Below, in pieces: positions 56,441 through 64,000 of a stretch of DNA of 64,000 nt. The first letter of the stretch is position 1. The number at the start of each line of letters is the position of its first letter. The notes under the pieces are model-generated. The model saw only the letters and a list, made by a program, of their open reading frames with translations. It searched no databases and was not told the DNA's origin. The position numbers and the translations under genes were made by a program. Source of the DNA: an uncultured Verrucomicrobiae bacterium (GTDB lineage: Bacteria > Verrucomicrobiota > Verrucomicrobiia > Limisphaerales > Palsa-1400); NCBI GenBank assembly GCA_963707025.1, contig CAVPOM010000006.1, positions 512,001-576,000 on the forward strand. Reading direction: 5' to 3'.

Positions 56441-56537
56441 CCGGCGCAATTGGCGGCGGGGCTTGCACCCAAAGCACGCCAACCAACCCGAATAATCTTT
56501 GGCCCCCGCCCCTTCCCCCTTACATTCGCGAGCGAAA

Positions 56538-58241
56538 ATGTCGAAGATGTTGAAATCATCCGGTGGGATCGGAGCGGCCACGCTGGCCAGCCGGGTGCTG
56601 GGCCTGGTGCGCGAACAGTTCTTTGCCGCTTTCATGGGGACCACTGCCATTGCGGGGGCGTTTCAATTCGCCTTCATGATTCCCAATATGTTCCGGCGCC
56701 TGCTGGGGGAAGGGGCCTTGACCGCGGCCTTCATCCCCATCTTCAAGGCCAAGGAAAAAACCGAGGGCGAGGCGGCCATGTGGCAGGCGGCCAACGCCGT
56801 CGTCTCGGGGCTGCTGGTCCTGGCCATGGGCATCGTCCTCCTGGTCATTTTGGCGCTGTCCCTTTTGTTGATCGCGCGAACCTGGCAGCCGGAGACCAGG
56901 CTGATGTTCCAACTGATGCGCCTGATGTTTCCTTACATGTTGATGGCCTGCCTCGGCGCCGTCTTCATCGGCATCCTCAACGCCCGCGGCCGTTTCTTCG
57001 TCCCCGCCCTGAGCGCGGCGATTCTGAACGTCGTGCTCATCAGCGCGGCCGCGCTGGTTTTGTCGTTGGGAAAGGATTATGACGCAAGCCTGCACAAGCA
57101 GGTTTTCATCCTGGCCGGCGCCGTGCTGGTGGCGGGCGTGGCGCAGGCGGCTTACCAGTTGCCGGCGCTGCGGTGCGAAGGATTCCGTTATCGCTGGGTC
57201 ACGCCGTGGCGCGATGCCACGGTGCGGGAAGTGGCCGCGAAAATGATTCCCGGAGCCATCGGCGTGGCGGCCTTCCAAATCAATGTCACGGTCAACCAGG
57301 CTTTTGCCTTTGGCGAGAACGCCAGGATTGTGAGCGAATTCAACTACGGGGTCCGCCTGATGGAACTGCCGCAGGGCGTGTTTGGCTTGTCGCTGGCCAC
57401 CTTTCTTTTGCCCACCCTGTCGGCGCTGGCGGTGGAAAAAAATTTCGGCCAGTTCCGCTCGACGTTGCGCCAGGGCGTCAACCATCTGATTTTTGTCAAC
57501 CTGCTCGCCTCGGTGCTGCTCTTTACCATGGCCGAGCCGATCATCCGGCTGCTCTTTGAGCGCGGGAAATTTGACGCCCTCTCCACCACGCGCGTCAGTT
57601 TTGGCCTGATGTGCCTGGTGCCGGGGCTGGTTTCCTTTTCGCTGGTCAACATTTTCGCCCGGGCCTTTTATGCGCTGCAAGACATCCGGACCCCGATGCG
57701 CGTCAGTGTTTTTTGTCTCGCGGCCAATGTGGTGTTGACAGTGATTTTTCTTTTTGGCACGGACCTGCGGGCCGGGGCGCTCGGCCTGGCCAACAGCCTG
57801 AGTTCCTTTTGCAATCTGGGCCTGCTGGTCTTTTCCCTGCGGAAAAAATTGCGGACCCTGGAAATGGCGGAATGCCTCGCCCAACTGCCGCGCCTGGCGC
57901 TGGCCGGATTGCTGGCGGGTTTGGAGGCCTGGGTTCTCCGCCGGCATTGGACGGCGCAGGCCGGTCATGCCACCCTCCCGCTCAAACTGGGCGAGGTTTT
58001 TCTGCCCATGACCGCGGCCGCGGCCGTTTATTTCCTGCTCGCCCTGTGGTGGAAGGTTCCTTCCGCGCACGAGATCGCCGGTTTGCTGGCCGGGCGCGCC
58101 GCATCTGTCAGGTACCTAATAATGAGCCGCTCCCCCCGTCCGGCCCGCCGGCTTAGCCAGGATAATTCAGCCCCGCGCCCCAACCCGGCGGGGCGGGCGG
58201 GCCGCCCCTGCCGCCCCGGCGCCGGGAAATTTCCGGGTTAG
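56538..58241 (+). CDS. murJ: Lipid II flippase MurJ
   Basis: TLASRVLGLVRE, AFMIPNMFRRLLGEGAL..AFIP, RLMELPQGVFG, LFERGKF, FYALQD.RTP. Confidence 0.95.
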   Translation: MSKMLKSSGGIGAATLASRVLGLVREQFFAAFMGTTAIAGAFQFAFMIPNMFRRLLGEGALTAAFIPIFKAKEKTEGEAAMWQAANAVVSGLLVLAMGIVLLVILALSLLLIARTWQPETRLMFQLMRLMFPYMLMACLGAVFIGILNARGRFFVPALSAAILNVVLISAAALVLSLGKDYDASLHKQVFILAGAVLVAGVAQAAYQLPALRCEGFRYRWVTPWRDATVREVAAKMIPGAIGVAAFQINVTVNQAFAFGENARIVSEFNYGVRLMELPQGVFGLSLATFLLPTLSALAVEKNFGQFRSTLRQGVNHLIFVNLLASVLLFTMAEPIIRLLFERGKFDALSTTRVSFGLMCLVPGLVSFSLVNIFARAFYALQDIRTPMRVSVFCLAANVVLTVIFLFGTDLRAGALGLANSLSSFCNLGLLVFSLRKKLRTLEMAECLAQLPRLALAGLLAGLEAWVLRRHWTAQAGHATLPLKLGEVFLPMTAAAAVYFLLALWWKVPSAHEIAGLLAGRAASVRYLIMSRSPRPARRLSQDNSAPRPNPAGRAGRPCRPGAGKFPG

Positions 58242-61225
58242 AGCCATTTCTTGTGGATGAGCCACATCTTGACCAGTTGGGTCAGGACCACGTAACAGAC
58301 CAGCGTGGCCAGCAAAATGGGCCAGAACAGCCAGGGCAGCGCCACGAAGCCGAGCCATTTGGCCAGGGGCGAGCAGGGCAGCCAGGCGGCCACGGCCATG
58401 ATGATCACGGTCGTGATGGTCAGAGGCGTGCTGGCCCGGGCCTGGATGAACGGAATCTGGCGGGTGCGGATGACGTGAATAATGAGAGTCTGGGTCATGA
58501 GCGATTCGACAAACCAGCCGGTGTGAAAGAGGGCCGCGCCCGCCGGGTCCCAGCAGTGGAACAGATCCAACATCACAAAAAACGTGGTGTAATCAAAAAT
58601 CGAACTGACTGGTCCGATGAACAGGATGAAGCGCGAAATCTCCCCCATGTCCCACGGCTGCGGTTTGGCGAGCAGGCGGACGTTGACGTTGTCGGTCGGA
58701 ATGGCGACCTGGGAAAAGTCATAGAGCAGATTGTTGGTCAGAATTTGAATGGGCAGCATGGGCTGATAGGGCAAAAAGGCGCTGGCGCCCAGCACGCTGA
58801 ACATGTTGCCAAAGTTGGAGCTGGCCCCCATGCGGATGTATTTGAGAATGTTGACGAAGACTTTGCGCCCTTCCAGCACCCCCTCCTCCAGCACCATCAG
58901 GTTTTTTTCCAGGAGGATCATGTCGGCCGAGTCCTTGGCGATGTCCACCGCGTTGTCCACCGAGATGCCCACGTCAGCCGCGCGCAAGGCGGGAGCGTCA
59001 TTGATGCCGTCGCCCATGAAGCCGACGACGCGGCCGTTGCGGCGGAGGGCCTCGACGATGCGCTGCTTGTGCGTGGGGGAAAGGCGGGCGAAGACCTGGG
59101 TGGTTTGGACCGCCTGGCCCAGTTGTTCGTCGCTCATGTTTTCCACCGCGCTGCCCAGCACCACCTGCCCGGTGTCCAGGCCCACCTCTTTGCAGACTTT
59201 GCGGGTGACCAGATCGTTGTCGCCGGTCAGTACTTTGACGGCGACGCCGTTGTGCTGCAAGGCGGCGATGGCCCGGCCGGCCGTCTCCTTGGGGGGATCG
59301 AGAAAGGCGATGTAACCCTTGAGAATCAATGCCGCTTCGTCGGCTTTGGAGTAAGCGGCCCGTTTGTCCAGGTTCCGGTAGGCCACGGCCAGCACGCGGA
59401 ATCCGTCGGCGCTCAAATCATTGTATTCCTGGATGAGATCGCCCATCAAAATGGGTTCCATCGGCAGGATTTCGCCCTCGCTTTCAAACTGGGTGCAATG
59501 GGCAAAAACCGCTTCCGGCGCGCCTTTGGTCAGGATCTGGTATTCATGGCCGGGCGTTTCCACGATGACCGACATCATCTTGCGCGAAAAATCGAACGGG
59601 ATTTCGTCCACCTTCCGGTAATTGTCAATGCAAAGTTTCTGCCCGGCCTCCGCATGGCTCAAGACCGCGCGATCCAGCACGTTCTTCAGCCCGGTCTGAA
59701 AATGGCTGATGAGGTAGGCATCCAGCAAGACGGGGTCGCTTTGTTTCTTGAACACGTCGCAATAGATTTCCAGGATGACGTGATCGCGCGTCAGCGTGCC
59801 GGTCTTGTCCGTGCAGAGCACGTTCATGGCGCCGAAGTTCTGGATGGAATTGAGGCGTTTGACGATGACTTTCTTCCGGGCCATGGCCAGCGCCCCCTTG
59901 GACAGGCAGACCGAGACGATCATGGGCAGCATTTCCGGCGTCAAACCCACCGCCACCGCCAGCGCGAACAGAAATGCCCCGCCCCAGTCATGCCGGCGGC
60001 TTTTTTTCAATTCCGCCGGGTAAGCGTCCTCCAGCAGCAAGCGGTTGAGCCGGAAATCATGGCGGCCCGGGTGCTGCAGGCGCTCCTGCGTTTCCGGCCC
60101 CAGCCGGATGCCCTGGAAACGGTTCCCGTCGTAGAGGGACGGCCCGGAAACAATCGTGTTCAAGTTGGAAACGAGAAACCCGGCCAGCTCAGCGCTGTTG
60201 CTGGGTGAGAGTTGCCAGGCGGCCAGGGACGCGCGGGCGCCGGGGTCCAATTGCCCGCTCAAAAAGGCGGAGACCGGGTCGGCTTTGGCCGCCAGTTTGC
60301 CAGCCAAGGAGGGGAGTTTGACCAGGTCATCGGGCGCAATCTCCGAGGGCGATTTGCTCAAAGCGTTGATGAGAAACACGGCCGGGACCATGACCAGCAT
60401 GAAGGTCAGCATCAGGTAGGTGAATTTTTTGATCCCTTTGTCGAAGTTGGTCTCGATCGTCTGCATCGTCATGCTGCTGGCGATGCCCCCCAAATAAGTG
60501 CGGGGGCCGGTCTCCACCACCACCGCGTGCGCCGTGCCGCTTTCCACGCTCGTTCCCAGGAAGCAGAGGTTGGCAAATTCCAAAGGCGAGATGTTTTCCC
60601 GCGTTTCCCGCGGGTCAAACTTTTCCACCGGCAATGATTCCCCCGTCAGCGTTGCCTGGATGATGAACAAATCCTTGGCCGTCAGAATCCGCACATCCGC
60701 CGGAATCATGTCGCCGGCGCATAATATGACAATGTCGCCGGGGACCAGGCGCTGCAAGGGGACTTCGGCGGGAAGGCCGTCGCGCAGGGCGGTGGCCGTG
60801 ACCTTGATCATCGCCTTCAACTTGGCGGCGGCGGAGTCGGCCTTGGATTCCTGGATGAAGCGCAGGCCCACACCGAGCACGACCATGGCCACCATCAGCC
60901 AGGCGCCGACGAAATCGCTGGTCTCCTGGGCGGTGGAAAAGCTGATGGTGGCCAGAACGGTCAACAGAATGACCAGCGGATTGCGCACGGCGTGGAACAG
61001 GCGGGTGGCCCAGGTATGACGTTTCTCGGTGGAAACTTCATTGGGACCCACGCTGGCCAGGCGCTCCTCCGCCACCGCTTCGGTCAACCCTTCCGGGCCG
61101 GTTTCCAGCTTGCGCAACGCTTCCGCCGCCTCCATCCGGCCCGCTTCCACCAATTGCGCGGAGACCCGTCCGCTGGCGGGCTTGCGTTTTGGCGGCGGCG
61201 CCGCAGTGTTGCTTTGGTTGTTCAT
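58238..61225 (-). CDS. mgtA: Magnesium-translocating P-type ATPase
   Basis: LTGES, AVAVGLTPEMLPMI, CTDKTGTLT, TGDN, GDGINDAP, SSNFGN, NLLYD. Confidence 0.95.
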   Translation of the reverse strand: MNNQSNTAAPPPKRKPASGRVSAQLVEAGRMEAAEALRKLETGPEGLTEAVAEERLASVGPNEVSTEKRHTWATRLFHAVRNPLVILLTVLATISFSTAQETSDFVGAWLMVAMVVLGVGLRFIQESKADSAAAKLKAMIKVTATALRDGLPAEVPLQRLVPGDIVILCAGDMIPADVRILTAKDLFIIQATLTGESLPVEKFDPRETRENISPLEFANLCFLGTSVESGTAHAVVVETGPRTYLGGIASSMTMQTIETNFDKGIKKFTYLMLTFMLVMVPAVFLINALSKSPSEIAPDDLVKLPSLAGKLAAKADPVSAFLSGQLDPGARASLAAWQLSPSNSAELAGFLVSNLNTIVSGPSLYDGNRFQGIRLGPETQERLQHPGRHDFRLNRLLLEDAYPAELKKSRRHDWGGAFLFALAVAVGLTPEMLPMIVSVCLSKGALAMARKKVIVKRLNSIQNFGAMNVLCTDKTGTLTRDHVILEIYCDVFKKQSDPVLLDAYLISHFQTGLKNVLDRAVLSHAEAGQKLCIDNYRKVDEIPFDFSRKMMSVIVETPGHEYQILTKGAPEAVFAHCTQFESEGEILPMEPILMGDLIQEYNDLSADGFRVLAVAYRNLDKRAAYSKADEAALILKGYIAFLDPPKETAGRAIAALQHNGVAVKVLTGDNDLVTRKVCKEVGLDTGQVVLGSAVENMSDEQLGQAVQTTQVFARLSPTHKQRIVEALRRNGRVVGFMGDGINDAPALRAADVGISVDNAVDIAKDSADMILLEKNLMVLEEGVLEGRKVFVNILKYIRMGASSNFGNMFSVLGASAFLPYQPMLPIQILTNNLLYDFSQVAIPTDNVNVRLLAKPQPWDMGEISRFILFIGPVSSIFDYTTFFVMLDLFHCWDPAGAALFHTGWFVESLMTQTLIIHVIRTRQIPFIQARASTPLTITTVIIMAVAAWLPCSPLAKWLGFVALPWLFWPILLATLVCYVVLTQLVKMWLIHKKWL
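59993..60352 (-). other. 120-aa inserted domain in the MgtA TM3-TM4 loop
   Basis: Lies between FLINALSK and HDWGGAFLFALAVAVG; homologous to the YidC insert. Confidence 0.88.
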
Positions 61226-61302
61226 TCCTTCACAACTGCCGGCGGCGAATAAACCACAACCTCCTGCCAAAGGTCACGGTTAAAATACCTTGATTTGCGT
61301 GG

Positions 61303-61330
61303 TTGACTCGCGGCGGGGCGGCGGTATGTT
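61303..61330 (+). promoter_or_regulatory. Probable sigma70 promoter of the rpmH operon
   Basis: TTGACT-N16-TATGTT. Confidence 0.5.
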
Positions 61331-61398
61331 CTCAGGCTCGGAAGCGCGGGGTCGCCGTGGCCGGGCTGTTGCCCCCGACGCGGGGCAATTTACAATAT

Positions 61399-61519
61399 GA
61401 GACCTCTGCAAAACGCGCGTCCACGATTGTAGCGGCGGTCTATGACCGCCGCAAACCAGGGGAAATAACGCCACGGCGACGGTCATAGACCGCCGCTACA
61501 GGCGGTTTGCAGAGGTCTC
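61399..61519. mobile_element. IS5-like MITE with internal REP dyad (copy 2)
   Basis: TIRs GAGACCTCTGCAAA / TTTGCAGAGGTCTC; AATAT on both flanks; same REP pair as 22240. Confidence 0.88.
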
Positions 61520-61532
61520 AATATACGAAAAC

Positions 61533-61670
61533 ATGAAACGCCAGTATCAACCGTCGAAAATCCGGCGCAAACGCCAGCACGGCTTTTTGAATCGCAACTC
61601 CAAAAAAAGCGGGCGCGCCATTTTGGCCAATCGCCGCCGGGTCGGCCGCAAACGCCTCACCCCCGTTTAA
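61533..61670 (+). CDS. rpmH: 50S ribosomal protein L34
   Basis: [45 protein letters not shown] (below the ORF-track cutoff). Confidence 0.97.
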
Positions 61671-61676
61671 CCCGCC

Positions 61677-62048
61677 ATGCCTGGCGACTCTCCCGCCCCC
61701 TTGGGCTTCCCGCGTTCCAGCCGCTTGAAGCGGCCAGGCGAATTTGCGCGCGCGCGCGCGCAAGGCCGGCGCCTGATTTGCGGCTGCCTGATTGCCAATG
61801 TCCTGCCGCGCCCCGGCCGGCTGGCGGCGCGGCTCGGCGTGGTGACGGCCAAGACGGTGGGCAACGCGGTGGCGCGCAACCGGGCGCGGCGGCTGCTGCG
61901 CGAGAGCTTCCGCCTGCACCAGCACGAACTGGCCGGGCCGGTGGATTTGGTGCTGGTGGCCCGCCCGTCCATCGCGGGCAAGAAGCTGGCGGAGGTGGAA
62001 CGCGATTTTTTGCGCGTCCTGCGGCAGGCCGGGATCGGAGGCCCATGA
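61677..62048 (+). CDS. rnpA: Ribonuclease P protein component
   Basis: [26 protein letters not shown]. Confidence 0.95.
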
Positions 62049-62416
62049 ACATCGGACAACGGATTTTGATTTTGCTGATTCGCGGTTATCAGGCGGTCCT
62101 TTCGCCGGCCCTGGCGGTTTTTTTCGGCCCGGCGGCGCGGTGCCGTTACACGCCCTCCTGCTCGCACTACGCCCGCGAGGCGATCAGCCGGCACGGCGTC
62201 CTGGCGGGTGGGGTGTTGGCAGCCAGGAGACTTTGCCGCTGCCACCCGTGGGGAGCGTCGGGCGATGATCCCGTGCCGTCTTCCCCTCTTAATCTTAATC
62301 CTAATCCTAATCTTAATCTCCGTACAACTGCACCAGGATTGGGATTAAGAGGATTAAGATTAAGATTAAGATTAGGATTAAGAGCGAACCCAAATCACCC
62401 CGGGCATGGACCGTAA
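62045..62416 (+). CDS. yidD: Membrane protein insertion efficiency factor YidD, with repeat-derived tail
   Basis: [35 protein letters not shown]. Confidence 0.93.
62286..62384. repeat. Inverted hexamer arrays (CTTAAT)n ... (ATTAAG)n inside yidD
   Basis: ctcttaatcttaatcctaatcctaatcttaatctc and gattaagattaagattaagattaggattaagag. Confidence 0.9.
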
Positions 62417-64000
62417 ATCACTTCTCATTTTAGTCGTCGCGGTGGCGGTGTTGTTCATGCTCTCGGGGCTGATCAATCATTTATTTCCGCCCCTCCAGGT
62501 GCCGGTCACGCCACTGGCCGCCTGGACAAATCAAACTGCCAATCCGCAAATGGCGCAGGGCGCCGGCACCAACCTCCCGGTTCCAACTCCGGGAGCGGCC
62601 GCAAACCCGCTGCCCGCCGCCGTCTCCAATCCTTCGCTGCCCGAGGTAACGCTGGCCGTTTCCAATCAGGATTTGATCTTTCATTTCACCTCGCGCGGCG
62701 GCGGGTTGAAGGAAATTGCCTTGCGCAATACCAATTATCCGGCGGTGGTCCACAGCCGGCTGCCGGCGCAGGATGAACGCAATTTTGCCACTTTGAATTC
62801 CGGACTCGCGAGTTTTTCCGCGGATGACATCACCGATTTGGGAAGGCTCATGGAGCGATTAAGGCGGCAGTCCGATCCAGTCTCCTCTTTTGTGTGGCAG
62901 AGATTGTCACCTCAGGAGCAATCATTTCTGATGAGCTATCAGCCTTCGGCGCCAACTGCGGCGCAAGCTCCCAGTATGGTGGCTCAAGGTCTTAACAGAA
63001 TAATGGCGGAACCATGCATTTACGAAGTCGAACTGTTTAAAGGGATCCCATTGCGATCTGAAACCAAGGCCCTGATGCAGCAAAATCCGGCCGGCCCCAA
63101 GTTGGCCCACCTCAACCGCCTGCTCCTCGAAGACGCTTTTTCAGTGGAATTGTCCAGGAACCTGAACTCAAGCGCCCCGGTTCCAATTCTGGCCATGCTC
63201 GGTGATAATGCCCTGGGCGACGATAACTTCACCCTCAGCCAGCCATCCAACAACCTCGTTCGCGCCGAGAAGACGCTGACCAATGGCCTGCGGGTGGTGA
63301 AGGAATTTGCGGTGGGCTACTCGGGCACCAATTATCTGTTCACCGCCAACATCCGGCTGGAAAACAATTCTTCGTCCACGTTGCAAATCCCGCGGCGCGA
63401 GGTGGTGGTGGGCACGGCCACGGCCATCGGGCCGCTGGACGATGTGACGACCCTGGGCGCCATGTGGTACAACGGCGACAAATCAACCGACATCGGAGCC
63501 GGCTGGTTTGCCAACGGGATGCTGGGCTGCGTCGAGGGAAAAACGCCCCCGACGATTTATGAAGGCGGCGCCAGCAACGTTGTCTGGGCCGCCATGCACA
63601 GCCAATACTTCGCCCTGGCCGCCATCCCCTCCCGGCCTGCTCCCGGCATTGTCATTCGCAACCCCAGCCTCTCGCCCCCTGACACCAACGGTATGGCCGG
63701 CGGCCAGCGGCTCACGATTACCAACGATTACAAAGGCTACCAAGCCTCTTTGGTTTATCCCGCCACACACCTGGACCCGCACCAGTCGCTGACCAATACT
63801 TTTACCTTTTACGCGGGGCCCAAGGAATACAACGGCCTGGCCAAAATTGGCCATTTCATGGGAAACAACCTGGATCTGGTCATGGGCTTCACCAGCTTTC
63901 TGGGTTTGTTTTCATTCTGCTCCAAGTTCCTGCTCATTTGGATGAACGGCCTCCATGATCTGGGGCTGACCTACGGTCTGGCCATCATCGCCATCACGGT
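62406..64000 (+). CDS. yidC: Membrane protein insertase YidC (runs off window end)
   Basis: MDRKSLLIL + [40 protein letters not shown]; canonical position after yidD. Confidence 0.93.
62802..63170 (+). other. 123-aa inserted domain in the YidC periplasmic region
   Basis: Bounded by LNS..LNS; many A/T-ending codons; homologous to the MgtA insert. Confidence 0.85.

Follow-up and report, generated by a model that had tools for sequence, protein, structure and literature searches.

Two host genes that share an inserted domain

The window considered here is a stretch of 64,000 nucleotides from the genome of an uncultured Verrucomicrobiae bacterium (contig CAVPOM010000006.1, positions 512,001 to 576,000). 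Near its end lie the genes of two unrelated membrane proteins, MgtA and YidC, each of which carries an in-frame copy of the same domain. The domain, referred to here as the module, comprises ∼115 residues encoded by ∼345 bp. An ortholog is termed filled when it carries the module at the site in question and empty when it reads through the site without it. The host genes, the two copies and the codons that flank the copy in yidC are as follows, with the basis of each assignment in brackets.

58238..61270, minus strand: mgtA, Mg2+-type P-type ATPase, 1010 codons plus stop, the first host gene (list of open reading frames, ORFs)
59993..60352, minus strand: module copy in MgtA, 120 codons, in the periplasmic loop between transmembrane segments (TM) 3 and 4, residues 307-426 (translation; 14 empty orthologs)
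62406..64000, plus strand: yidC, membrane insertase, full gene of 733 codons that extends past the window end, the second host gene (ORF list; Pfam YidC_periplas)
62793..62801, plus strand: left Leu-Asn-Ser codons, TTGAATTCC (identical to the empty-site sequence of close relatives)
62802..63161, plus strand: module copy in the periplasmic P1 region of YidC, 120 codons, residues 133-252 (translation; BLASTP; empty orthologs)
63162..63170, plus strand: right Leu-Asn-Ser codons, CTGAACTCA (6/9 bases match the left copy, and the 3 differences are synonymous)

The MgtA insert is bounded by ortholog alignment at exactly 59993-60352, between ...INALSK and HDWGG. The translation of this segment on the minus strand starts SPSEIAPDDLVKL, and the core matched by the hidden Markov model (HMM) of the module spans 60002-60340 (E 2.3e-36). 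MgtA itself matches the Pfam families E1-E2_ATPase, Cation_ATPase_N/C and Hydrolase and is 72-92% identical to its orthologs. In YidC, the insert begins directly after FATLNS and has an HMM core at 62811-63158; the site lies in the P1 region, with a PF14849 match just downstream at residues 288-496. An earlier note on this DNA, made from the letters alone, had located both segments correctly, as the translations of 59993-60352 and 62802-63170 agree with its reading, and had rightly assigned the YidC insert to the periplasmic part of the protein; it left the minus strand of mgtA unstated. Its hand count of about one-third identity with some two gaps is confirmed by BLASTP of the two inserts (40/113 identities, 35%, with 2 gap positions, E 1e-20), and the exact 9-mer LNRLLLEDA is indeed common to both. 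When whole MgtA is compared with whole YidC, the insert segment is the sole significant high-scoring segment pair (E 2e-15).

The left YidC junction (62760-63060) is spanned with 0 differences by contigs of two soil-metagenome DNA runs, which are possibly from the source sample. In the same runs, whose contigs are of low depth, the right junction is unspanned and no empty allele was seen. A look-up of RNA runs for positions 62500-63500 found none.

A domain family absent from current libraries

The module is conserved as a folded protein. AlphaFold2, run on an alignment of the 14 copies of the source genome (alignment A2), returns six helices with a predicted local distance difference test score of 93.2 and a predicted template modelling score of 0.85, in keeping with the helical module that the earlier note had expected. 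Residues 6 and 111 are bridged in this model, so that the ends of the module meet, and this one-residue bridge between the termini is the only beta feature. The consensus over 506 copies starts Fs.dDi.Dl..La.kLr..sDPVSafLw.qLS...LN.ii.GPsIYd..RF.gv.LrpET and closes.ELaR. Three positions are nearly invariant, namely N101 (98%), F1 (97%) and R102 (95%), and the last model position is Arg in 60% and Lys in 40% of the copies. A homodimer prediction from two module copies on the same alignment scored 0.00 and bears neither way.

No described family was found to contain the module, as the earlier note had supposed. The MgtA and YidC inserts have 0 Pfam matches at E<=1, while their hosts match the expected families, and a Pfam search with all 14 copies at E<=10 gave a single chance-level match, to PKD (E 0.2). 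NCBIfam, PHROGs and PADLOC yielded scattered single-copy, chance-level matches (best E ∼0.01), and in no case did two of the 14 copies match the same family; the PDB sequences gave one weak row at E 0.0036 and nothing of substance. Structural searches were likewise empty: Foldseek against PDB found nothing at E<=0.001 (best E 2.3), a wide VIA-align search reached a Z of at most 4.8, which is under the noise level of the tool for helical bundles, BFVD gave no match (best E 4.4), and the ESM Atlas gave no usable match. A search of the literature, covering open-access text and preprints, found no description of the module. DUF3349 (PF11829) was considered as a candidate and rejected; it collects 26.7 bits when summed over a protein with six copies (P0005), against a cut-off of 28.3, no single stretch passes, and none of the 14 genome copies match.

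The module has the properties of an autonomous domain, in that it is modelled confidently in isolation and occurs in 12 host ORFs of this genome and in dozens of Pfam contexts elsewhere. It is a new, well-folded and previously unannotated domain family.

Copies and hosts in the genome and genus

The source genome (6.96 Mb in 18 contigs) contains many more copies than the two in the window. The MgtA insert used as a query matches 12 further places, and iteration of an HMM over all six-frame ORFs settled at 14 copies, distributed over 12 ORFs. An absence of other hosts in the genome, which the earlier note held would speak against its reading, is thus not what was found. Besides MgtA and YidC, the hosts, with identities assigned by Pfam, are as follows.

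BSP-type peptidase: two module copies
TssG, a type VI secretion protein: PF06996 split by two divergent copies
CHASE2 adenylate cyclase: module splits CHASE2
GH95 glycosidase: one copy
Cytochrome c7-like protein and an adjoining small ORF: upstream of FeS and NrfD genes
ORF of 448 residues: longer orthologs in congeners match PMT_2
Two adjacent TMEM260-like/TPR proteins: ∼1,300 residues
ORF of 149 residues

Six congeners, whose genomes are 64-92% complete, hold 64 copies in ∼28 host groups, 19 of which are found in one genome only. Identity within the genus is 70-85% between orthologous copies and does not exceed 59% between copies of different hosts.

Some of these hosts have further features of their own. 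The tandem TMEM260-like/TPR genes, of ∼1,300 codons each (L021, G000:C5:279796-288608), carry modules that are 80% identical to each other, and congeners likewise have two. The ORF of 149 residues (L020:3566-4450, G000:C18:118234-119118) follows an ORF of 144 codons in the same frame with one stop codon between them, its module is without the first 15 model positions, and a gene of the UDG family lies just downstream; the ORF may be a broken or truncated host gene. In the cytochrome operon, the NrfD-type membrane subunit is fused to a cyclic-nucleotide-binding domain (L016:6450-8384, G000:C6), and two small cytochrome-type genes that lead the operon each carry the module.

Empty sites and the age of insertions

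Exact empty sites, which the earlier note had proposed to look for in relatives, were found for both window copies. Among 25 aligned MgtA orthologs of the family, 11 are filled and 14 are empty, the latter reading ...INGLTK|HDWK..., in agreement with the statement that canonical MgtA has only a few residues at this point. When the insert columns are left out of the tree, all filled genes fall into a single clade (SH-aLRT 100, 1 change), and the MgtA insertion is one old event that was then inherited. Across genera the MgtA insert is patchy, with 1/3 filled in g3 and 1/3 in g8. The YidC site is empty in all 29 aligned orthologs (FAT-LNS-KAP) and in congener G004, that is in 30/30; three congeners with 79-86% identity are among the empty orthologs, and the nearest metagenomic YidC proteins, at ∼80% identity, are all empty as well. 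The YidC insertion, judged by these alignments, is young and is seen in this species only. The insert is therefore not an ancestral feature that all orthologs of either protein share, and none of the three findings that the earlier note named as refuting its idea was made. The YidC of congener G004 has a copy elsewhere, between query residues 430 and 440, with a module that is 46% identical.

Further hosts display insertions at other sites and of other ages. The CHASE2 cyclase is filled in four congeners and empty in two. Orthologs of an MFS transporter in congeners G001 and G003 carry the module at different sites, and each is empty where the other is filled. Modules are also nested: in a host of PMT_2 type (G001) a new module lies within an older one, and in LigA a full module lies between model positions 41 and 57 of another. 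Two unrelated proteins from public data (P0032 and P0084) have modules that are 88-95% identical between unrelated flanks, the shared unit extending from SSLFSVGDF to EIAKSQ; a metagenome scan for the DNA of these modules found nothing closer than 63%. The module has thus been inserted repeatedly, independently and in frame into loops of unrelated proteins at different times.

Two side observations concern the orthologs themselves. The MFS transporter of G003 (L107) has, at alignment columns ∼330-390, an extra, hydrophobic-looking segment of ∼58 residues that is unrelated to the module and that the G001 ortholog is without. Stop codons occur in otherwise conserved orthologs (rows G001:C130, G015:C1, G002:C87 and G004:C205), with two TAA in one filled mgtA, one TGA splitting another mgtA, and one TAG in each of two empty CHASE2 cyclase genes; these may represent assembly errors, pseudogenes or two genes.

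Selection, composition and relationships of the copies

Once in place, the module is under purifying selection. The ratio of nonsynonymous to synonymous substitution rates (dN/dS) between orthologs is 0.18-0.55 for the module and 0.08-0.42 for the rest of the host, with a dS between the source genome (G000) and G003 of ∼0.3-0.5. The base composition of the copies varies with their distribution. Young copies, meaning those present in one or few congeners, fall below their hosts in G+C content at third codon positions, or GC3 (0.586 vs 0.770 in the YidC of the window; 0.565 vs 0.785, 0.530 vs 0.784 and 0.535 vs 0.735 for others), and widely shared copies resemble their hosts (0.796 vs 0.811 for MgtA; 0.83 vs 0.81 for the TMEM260-like proteins). 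Over 41 metagenomic loci the mean GC3 difference is -0.016, with a subset at -0.09 to -0.19 and slightly positive values in low-GC genomes. The module tree places the YidC copy, together with those of the cytochromes, in a verrucomicrobial clade with a support of 98, and joins the MgtA copy to those of the GH95 and PMT_2 hosts (96).

Spread beyond the genus

A profile search of 1.84 billion cluster representatives of public proteins, following a check that the earlier note had suggested for this genome and beyond, retrieved 4,667 representatives at E<=1e-3, 2,674 at E<=1e-10 and 158 at E<=1e-30. The public hosts range from 176 to 7,546 residues in length and contain up to 8 module copies per protein, and the source names of the matches point to Verrucomicrobiota. 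In the order of the source genome the module is present in 38 of 41 genomes, with 7-14 matches in the six genomes of the genus and 1-7 elsewhere. An even sample of other Verrucomicrobiota was positive in 8 of 300 genomes at E<=1e-12, five of them from one family of another class. The YidC module had no tblastn match in phage or plasmid collections, and IMG/VR holds just three loci, one of them in an ORF of 802 residues that adjoins a baseplate-hub gene; three loci are too few to name phages as the vehicle.

Records of species representatives with the module are titled Aminicenantes, Bryobacterales, Acidobacteriota, Planctomycetota, Pirellulales, Chlorobiaceae, Methylococcales, Acetobacteraceae and Bradyrhizobium sp.; labels of metagenome-assembled genomes may be wrong, and some of the matches lie on megabase contigs. 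Non-verrucomicrobial copies are 30-50% identical to a verrucomicrobial copy, which is the range of paralogs within the source genome. A tree of 56 modules requires 9 changes of the Verrucomicrobiota label, at least two of which are forced by well-supported branches; module trees rest on an alignment of 115 columns, and their deep branches are weak.

Further hosts add to the range of proteins and sites.

Envelope: MsbA (first periplasmic loop, ECL1), POT (TM1-TM2 loop), MFS, OPT, SSF and GntP
Envelope: LptC/LptE, a Wza-like exporter, PorV, the P1 head of SecDF, peroxiredoxins and prepilin peptidase
Envelope: GH78, in which the module splits the six-hairpin domain
Cytoplasm: extracytoplasmic function (ECF) sigma factor, in the linker between regions 2 and 4, the T-loop of P-II, and LigA
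Cytoplasm: a DHH/RecJ-like protein, SIR2-like proteins, RNA ligase and a STAND NTPase

The module is also found at protein ends, free-standing and in tandem arrays. The earlier view of a promiscuous segment that spreads into loops agrees with these hosts; its restriction to membrane proteins and to extracytoplasmic sites does not, given the copies in TssG, the ECF sigma linker, the P-II T-loop, LigA and the STAND NTPase. Four GT-C families serve as hosts, namely the TMEM260-like, PMT_2, YfhO and TIGR03663 families. Proteins of 1,187-1,502 residues that combine PF11028, TPR and the module are numerous in public data, and most of the 38 positive genomes of the order have module matches in ORFs of ∼1,290-1,500 residues, a class defined by length alone. 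A metallophosphatase-type protein of an uncultured bacterium (L211) carries the module twice, at a GC3 of 0.13 in the module and 0.20 in the host; such low values mean that the family covers nearly the full range of bacterial base composition.

Junctions and neighbouring genes

The junctions of several copies contain short repeats. At the YidC insert, the Leu-Asn-Ser codons to the right of the module may derive from a decayed duplication of the target or from the tail of the donor. The MFS copy of G003 is flanked by a direct repeat that matches at 11 of 12 bases, CAAACCATGCGC/CAATCCATGCGC (QTMR/QSMR), and weaker target-like duplications occur at the junctions of the G004 YidC and the BSP host. 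At the protein level, the amino acids adjacent to the two ends of the module are more alike than those of controls from the same proteins (score 10.27 vs 8.95-9.42; p 0.004-0.007 for flank similarity), with shared flank tripeptides in 7/91 cases vs 0-3/91 in the controls, an excess to which linkers of the module itself could contribute.

The surroundings of the two host genes in the window were read by eye. Upstream of yidC lie an rnpA-like ORF of 123 codons (61677-62048, plus strand) and a YidD-like stretch within the ORF 61778-62416 (plus strand), which would give the usual gene order rnpA-yidD-yidC from window position 61677 onwards. An ORF of 580 codons (56499-58241, plus strand) adjoins mgtA and resembles a multi-pass membrane protein of MurJ/MviN type.

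A mobile cassette or a selected module

The reading favoured here, to which a probability of about one half is assigned, is that the module is an in-frame mobile cassette, a mobile element that acts at the level of the protein domain. A cassette of ∼345 bp would insert in frame into a loop of a host protein, many times independently, and would remain translated as part of the host and be retained in the mature protein. Its adjacent N and C termini would make such an insert tolerable, since the loop of the host is then closed by a compact extra lobe. Purifying selection would then follow from insertion, since unfolding or imprecise deletion of the lobe would damage the host. A putatively active subfamily, with members such as the copies in YidC and cytochrome c, would keep a lower G+C content than the host genes; its composition, its nesting, the multiple hits in one gene and its rapid turnover suggest behaviour like that of a mobile element. 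The best guess for insertion at the DNA level is a break-and-fill process that may sometimes leave a target duplication of 9-12 bp, and the best guess for the activity of the module is a protein-binding surface around the near-invariant Asn-Arg. A bolder version proposes a new class of mobile elements, in which a cassette of this size without an enzyme of its own is copied between genes, genomes and phyla by a trans-acting activity. It would always land in frame in loops and would persist because the lobe that it encodes, which folds by itself and has adjacent termini, holds the host gene hostage; it would be neither an intein nor a miniature inverted-repeat transposable element (MITE); this version is considered unlikely.

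A number of results weigh against a mobile cassette. No machinery for mobility was found: free-standing copies adjoin no transposase, neither window copy has terminal inverted repeats, and the search for RNA structure was negative (fold z 0.63, with 72/100 shuffles folding as well). The element ends are ragged by 1-3 codons, the Leu-Asn-Ser repeat at the YidC insert differs at 3/9 bases, and a pooled test of flanking DNA 12-mers (n=36) for target duplications was negative, scoring 7.72 vs 7.56-7.78 in controls, with matches of at least 10/12 in 1/36 vs 0-3/36. A donor search for the YidC copy among 5.8 billion proteins gave a best match of 58% identity, and the age classes behind the GC3 comparison were set after seeing the data. 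The hosts are also enriched in membrane or exported proteins, with at least one membrane-like segment in 171/277 hosts (62%) vs 38% of 4,205 background ORFs, as counted by a crude hydrophobicity measure without dereplication. The near-invariant polar residues represent conservation at the protein level, and the module has been retained for long in MgtA, TssG and the TMEM260-like proteins; a selected function explains both observations no less well than a passenger does.

Selection for a function is the main alternative. The module could be a lineage-expanded binding, docking or regulatory domain, mainly of the envelope, that is added by rare illegitimate recombination and kept because it is useful, with no dedicated mobility; a shared property such as recruitment to a common partner might be selected, and that partner might be a TMEM260-like/TPR glycosyltransferase. 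This account is a serious possibility, held only tentatively. The purifying selection in every host tested and the near invariance of N101, R102 and F1 are what it predicts, as are the order-wide carriage in ORFs of ∼1,290-1,500 residues with the recurring combination of PF11028, TPR and module in public proteins, the four GT-C host families and the many envelope hosts (LptC/E, Wza-like, PorV, MsbA ECL1, the POT TM1-TM2 loop and SecDF P1). Tandem arrays of up to eight copies also resemble known binding repeats. However, no pathway unites the hosts, some of which are cytoplasmic (TssG, the ECF sigma linker, the P-II T-loop, LigA, the DHH/RecJ-like protein and the STAND NTPase), and no partner or ligand is known. 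The low GC3 of young copies points to arrival from outside, and the two independent insertions into the same gene within the genus (YidC and MFS), the nested copies and the 19 of ∼28 host groups confined to a single congener indicate turnover faster than is usual for domain accretion. The mobile-cassette and selected-function readings are not exclusive, and both may hold.

Two further explanations conflict with the evidence of trees, empty sites and junction residues. The idea that the insert was ancestral in MgtA and YidC and was lost by most relatives can appeal to the patchy MgtA distribution across genera, but the filled MgtA genes are a single derived clade nested among empty ones, YidC is filled in the source genome alone while its three closest relatives and all others are empty, and many repeated, codon-exact deletions would be required; it is very improbable. 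An intervening sequence of intein or intron type, removed from the protein or the RNA to leave canonical mature hosts, is scarcely credible either. In-frame position, essential host genes and a sporadic distribution are indeed shared with inteins, yet the junctions have no splicing chemistry, with Phe at position 1 in 97% and Arg or Lys at the last, and no conserved Cys, Ser or Thr follows the insert, the residues found there being N, S, D, R, K and P. The model is built of helices and does not have the HINT beta fold, no RNA structure was found, and modules at protein ends, free-standing or in tandem arrays have no place in such a scheme.

The consequences differ with the explanation. As a mobile cassette, the module would amount to a natural experiment in domain insertion, in which one fold is tolerated in a P-type ATPase hairpin, YidC, the P-II T-loop, TssG, glycosidases and transporters, and it would point to an unknown route for moving coding DNA in frame. 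As a selected tag, it would mark a large and unrecognised network of interaction or regulation in the envelopes of soil Verrucomicrobiota and other phyla. On either reading, several thousand protein clusters hold a domain that is unnamed in current libraries and that splits known domains in annotation, which a family model for the module would improve at once.

Comparison with known systems

Inteins are similar to the module in that they lie in frame in unrelated and often essential genes, are sporadically distributed, leave exact empty sites and may occupy several sites per host gene. Unlike inteins, the module has no splicing residues, HINT fold or detected endonuclease, probably stays in the mature protein, and occurs in tandem arrays and at protein termini.

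Another comparison is offered by the Rickettsia palindromic elements (RPEs), which Ogata et al. reportedly described in 2000 as MITE-like selfish DNA inserted in frame in protein-coding genes. Both are short cassettes that lie in frame in many unrelated genes, are translated with the host and are presumed to sit on protein surfaces. RPEs are recognised by DNA similarity and palindromes; in contrast, the module is conserved as protein, has ragged ends without inverted repeats or a hairpin, and is a full folded domain of 115 residues. The likeness at the DNA level that defines RPEs and MITEs is absent from the module, as is evident from the protein identity of at most 59% between copies in different hosts and from the dN/dS values of 0.18-0.55. 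The term Rickettsia palindromic element occurs in PMC1779305 and PMC10969869. The ShiLan domain of a phage methylase is presented in PMC11855218 as an in-frame homing insertion that hides a nuclease. The module differs from an insertion of this type as a small helical bundle with no matched nuclease family and with hundreds of hosts vs one homing site; the 14 copies have no Pfam match to a nuclease domain (HNH, LAGLIDADG or GIY-YIG), although an HMM scan could miss a cryptic motif.

The module also bears comparison with promiscuous accessory domains. Death-fold interaction modules are typically six-helix bundles whose termini are adjacent. The structural likeness to death domains (FAS/FADD, RIG-I CARD, TRADD, RIPK1 and PIDD) reaches a VIA-align Z of 2.8-3.7 only, with Foldseek E >2, and provides no evidence of kinship. 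Like the PAS, GAF, TPR and death-fold modules, the domain described here is small and autonomous and is present, singly or in arrays, in very many architectures. Unlike them, it lies mostly inside domains and loops instead of at protein ends, and it turns over within a genus.

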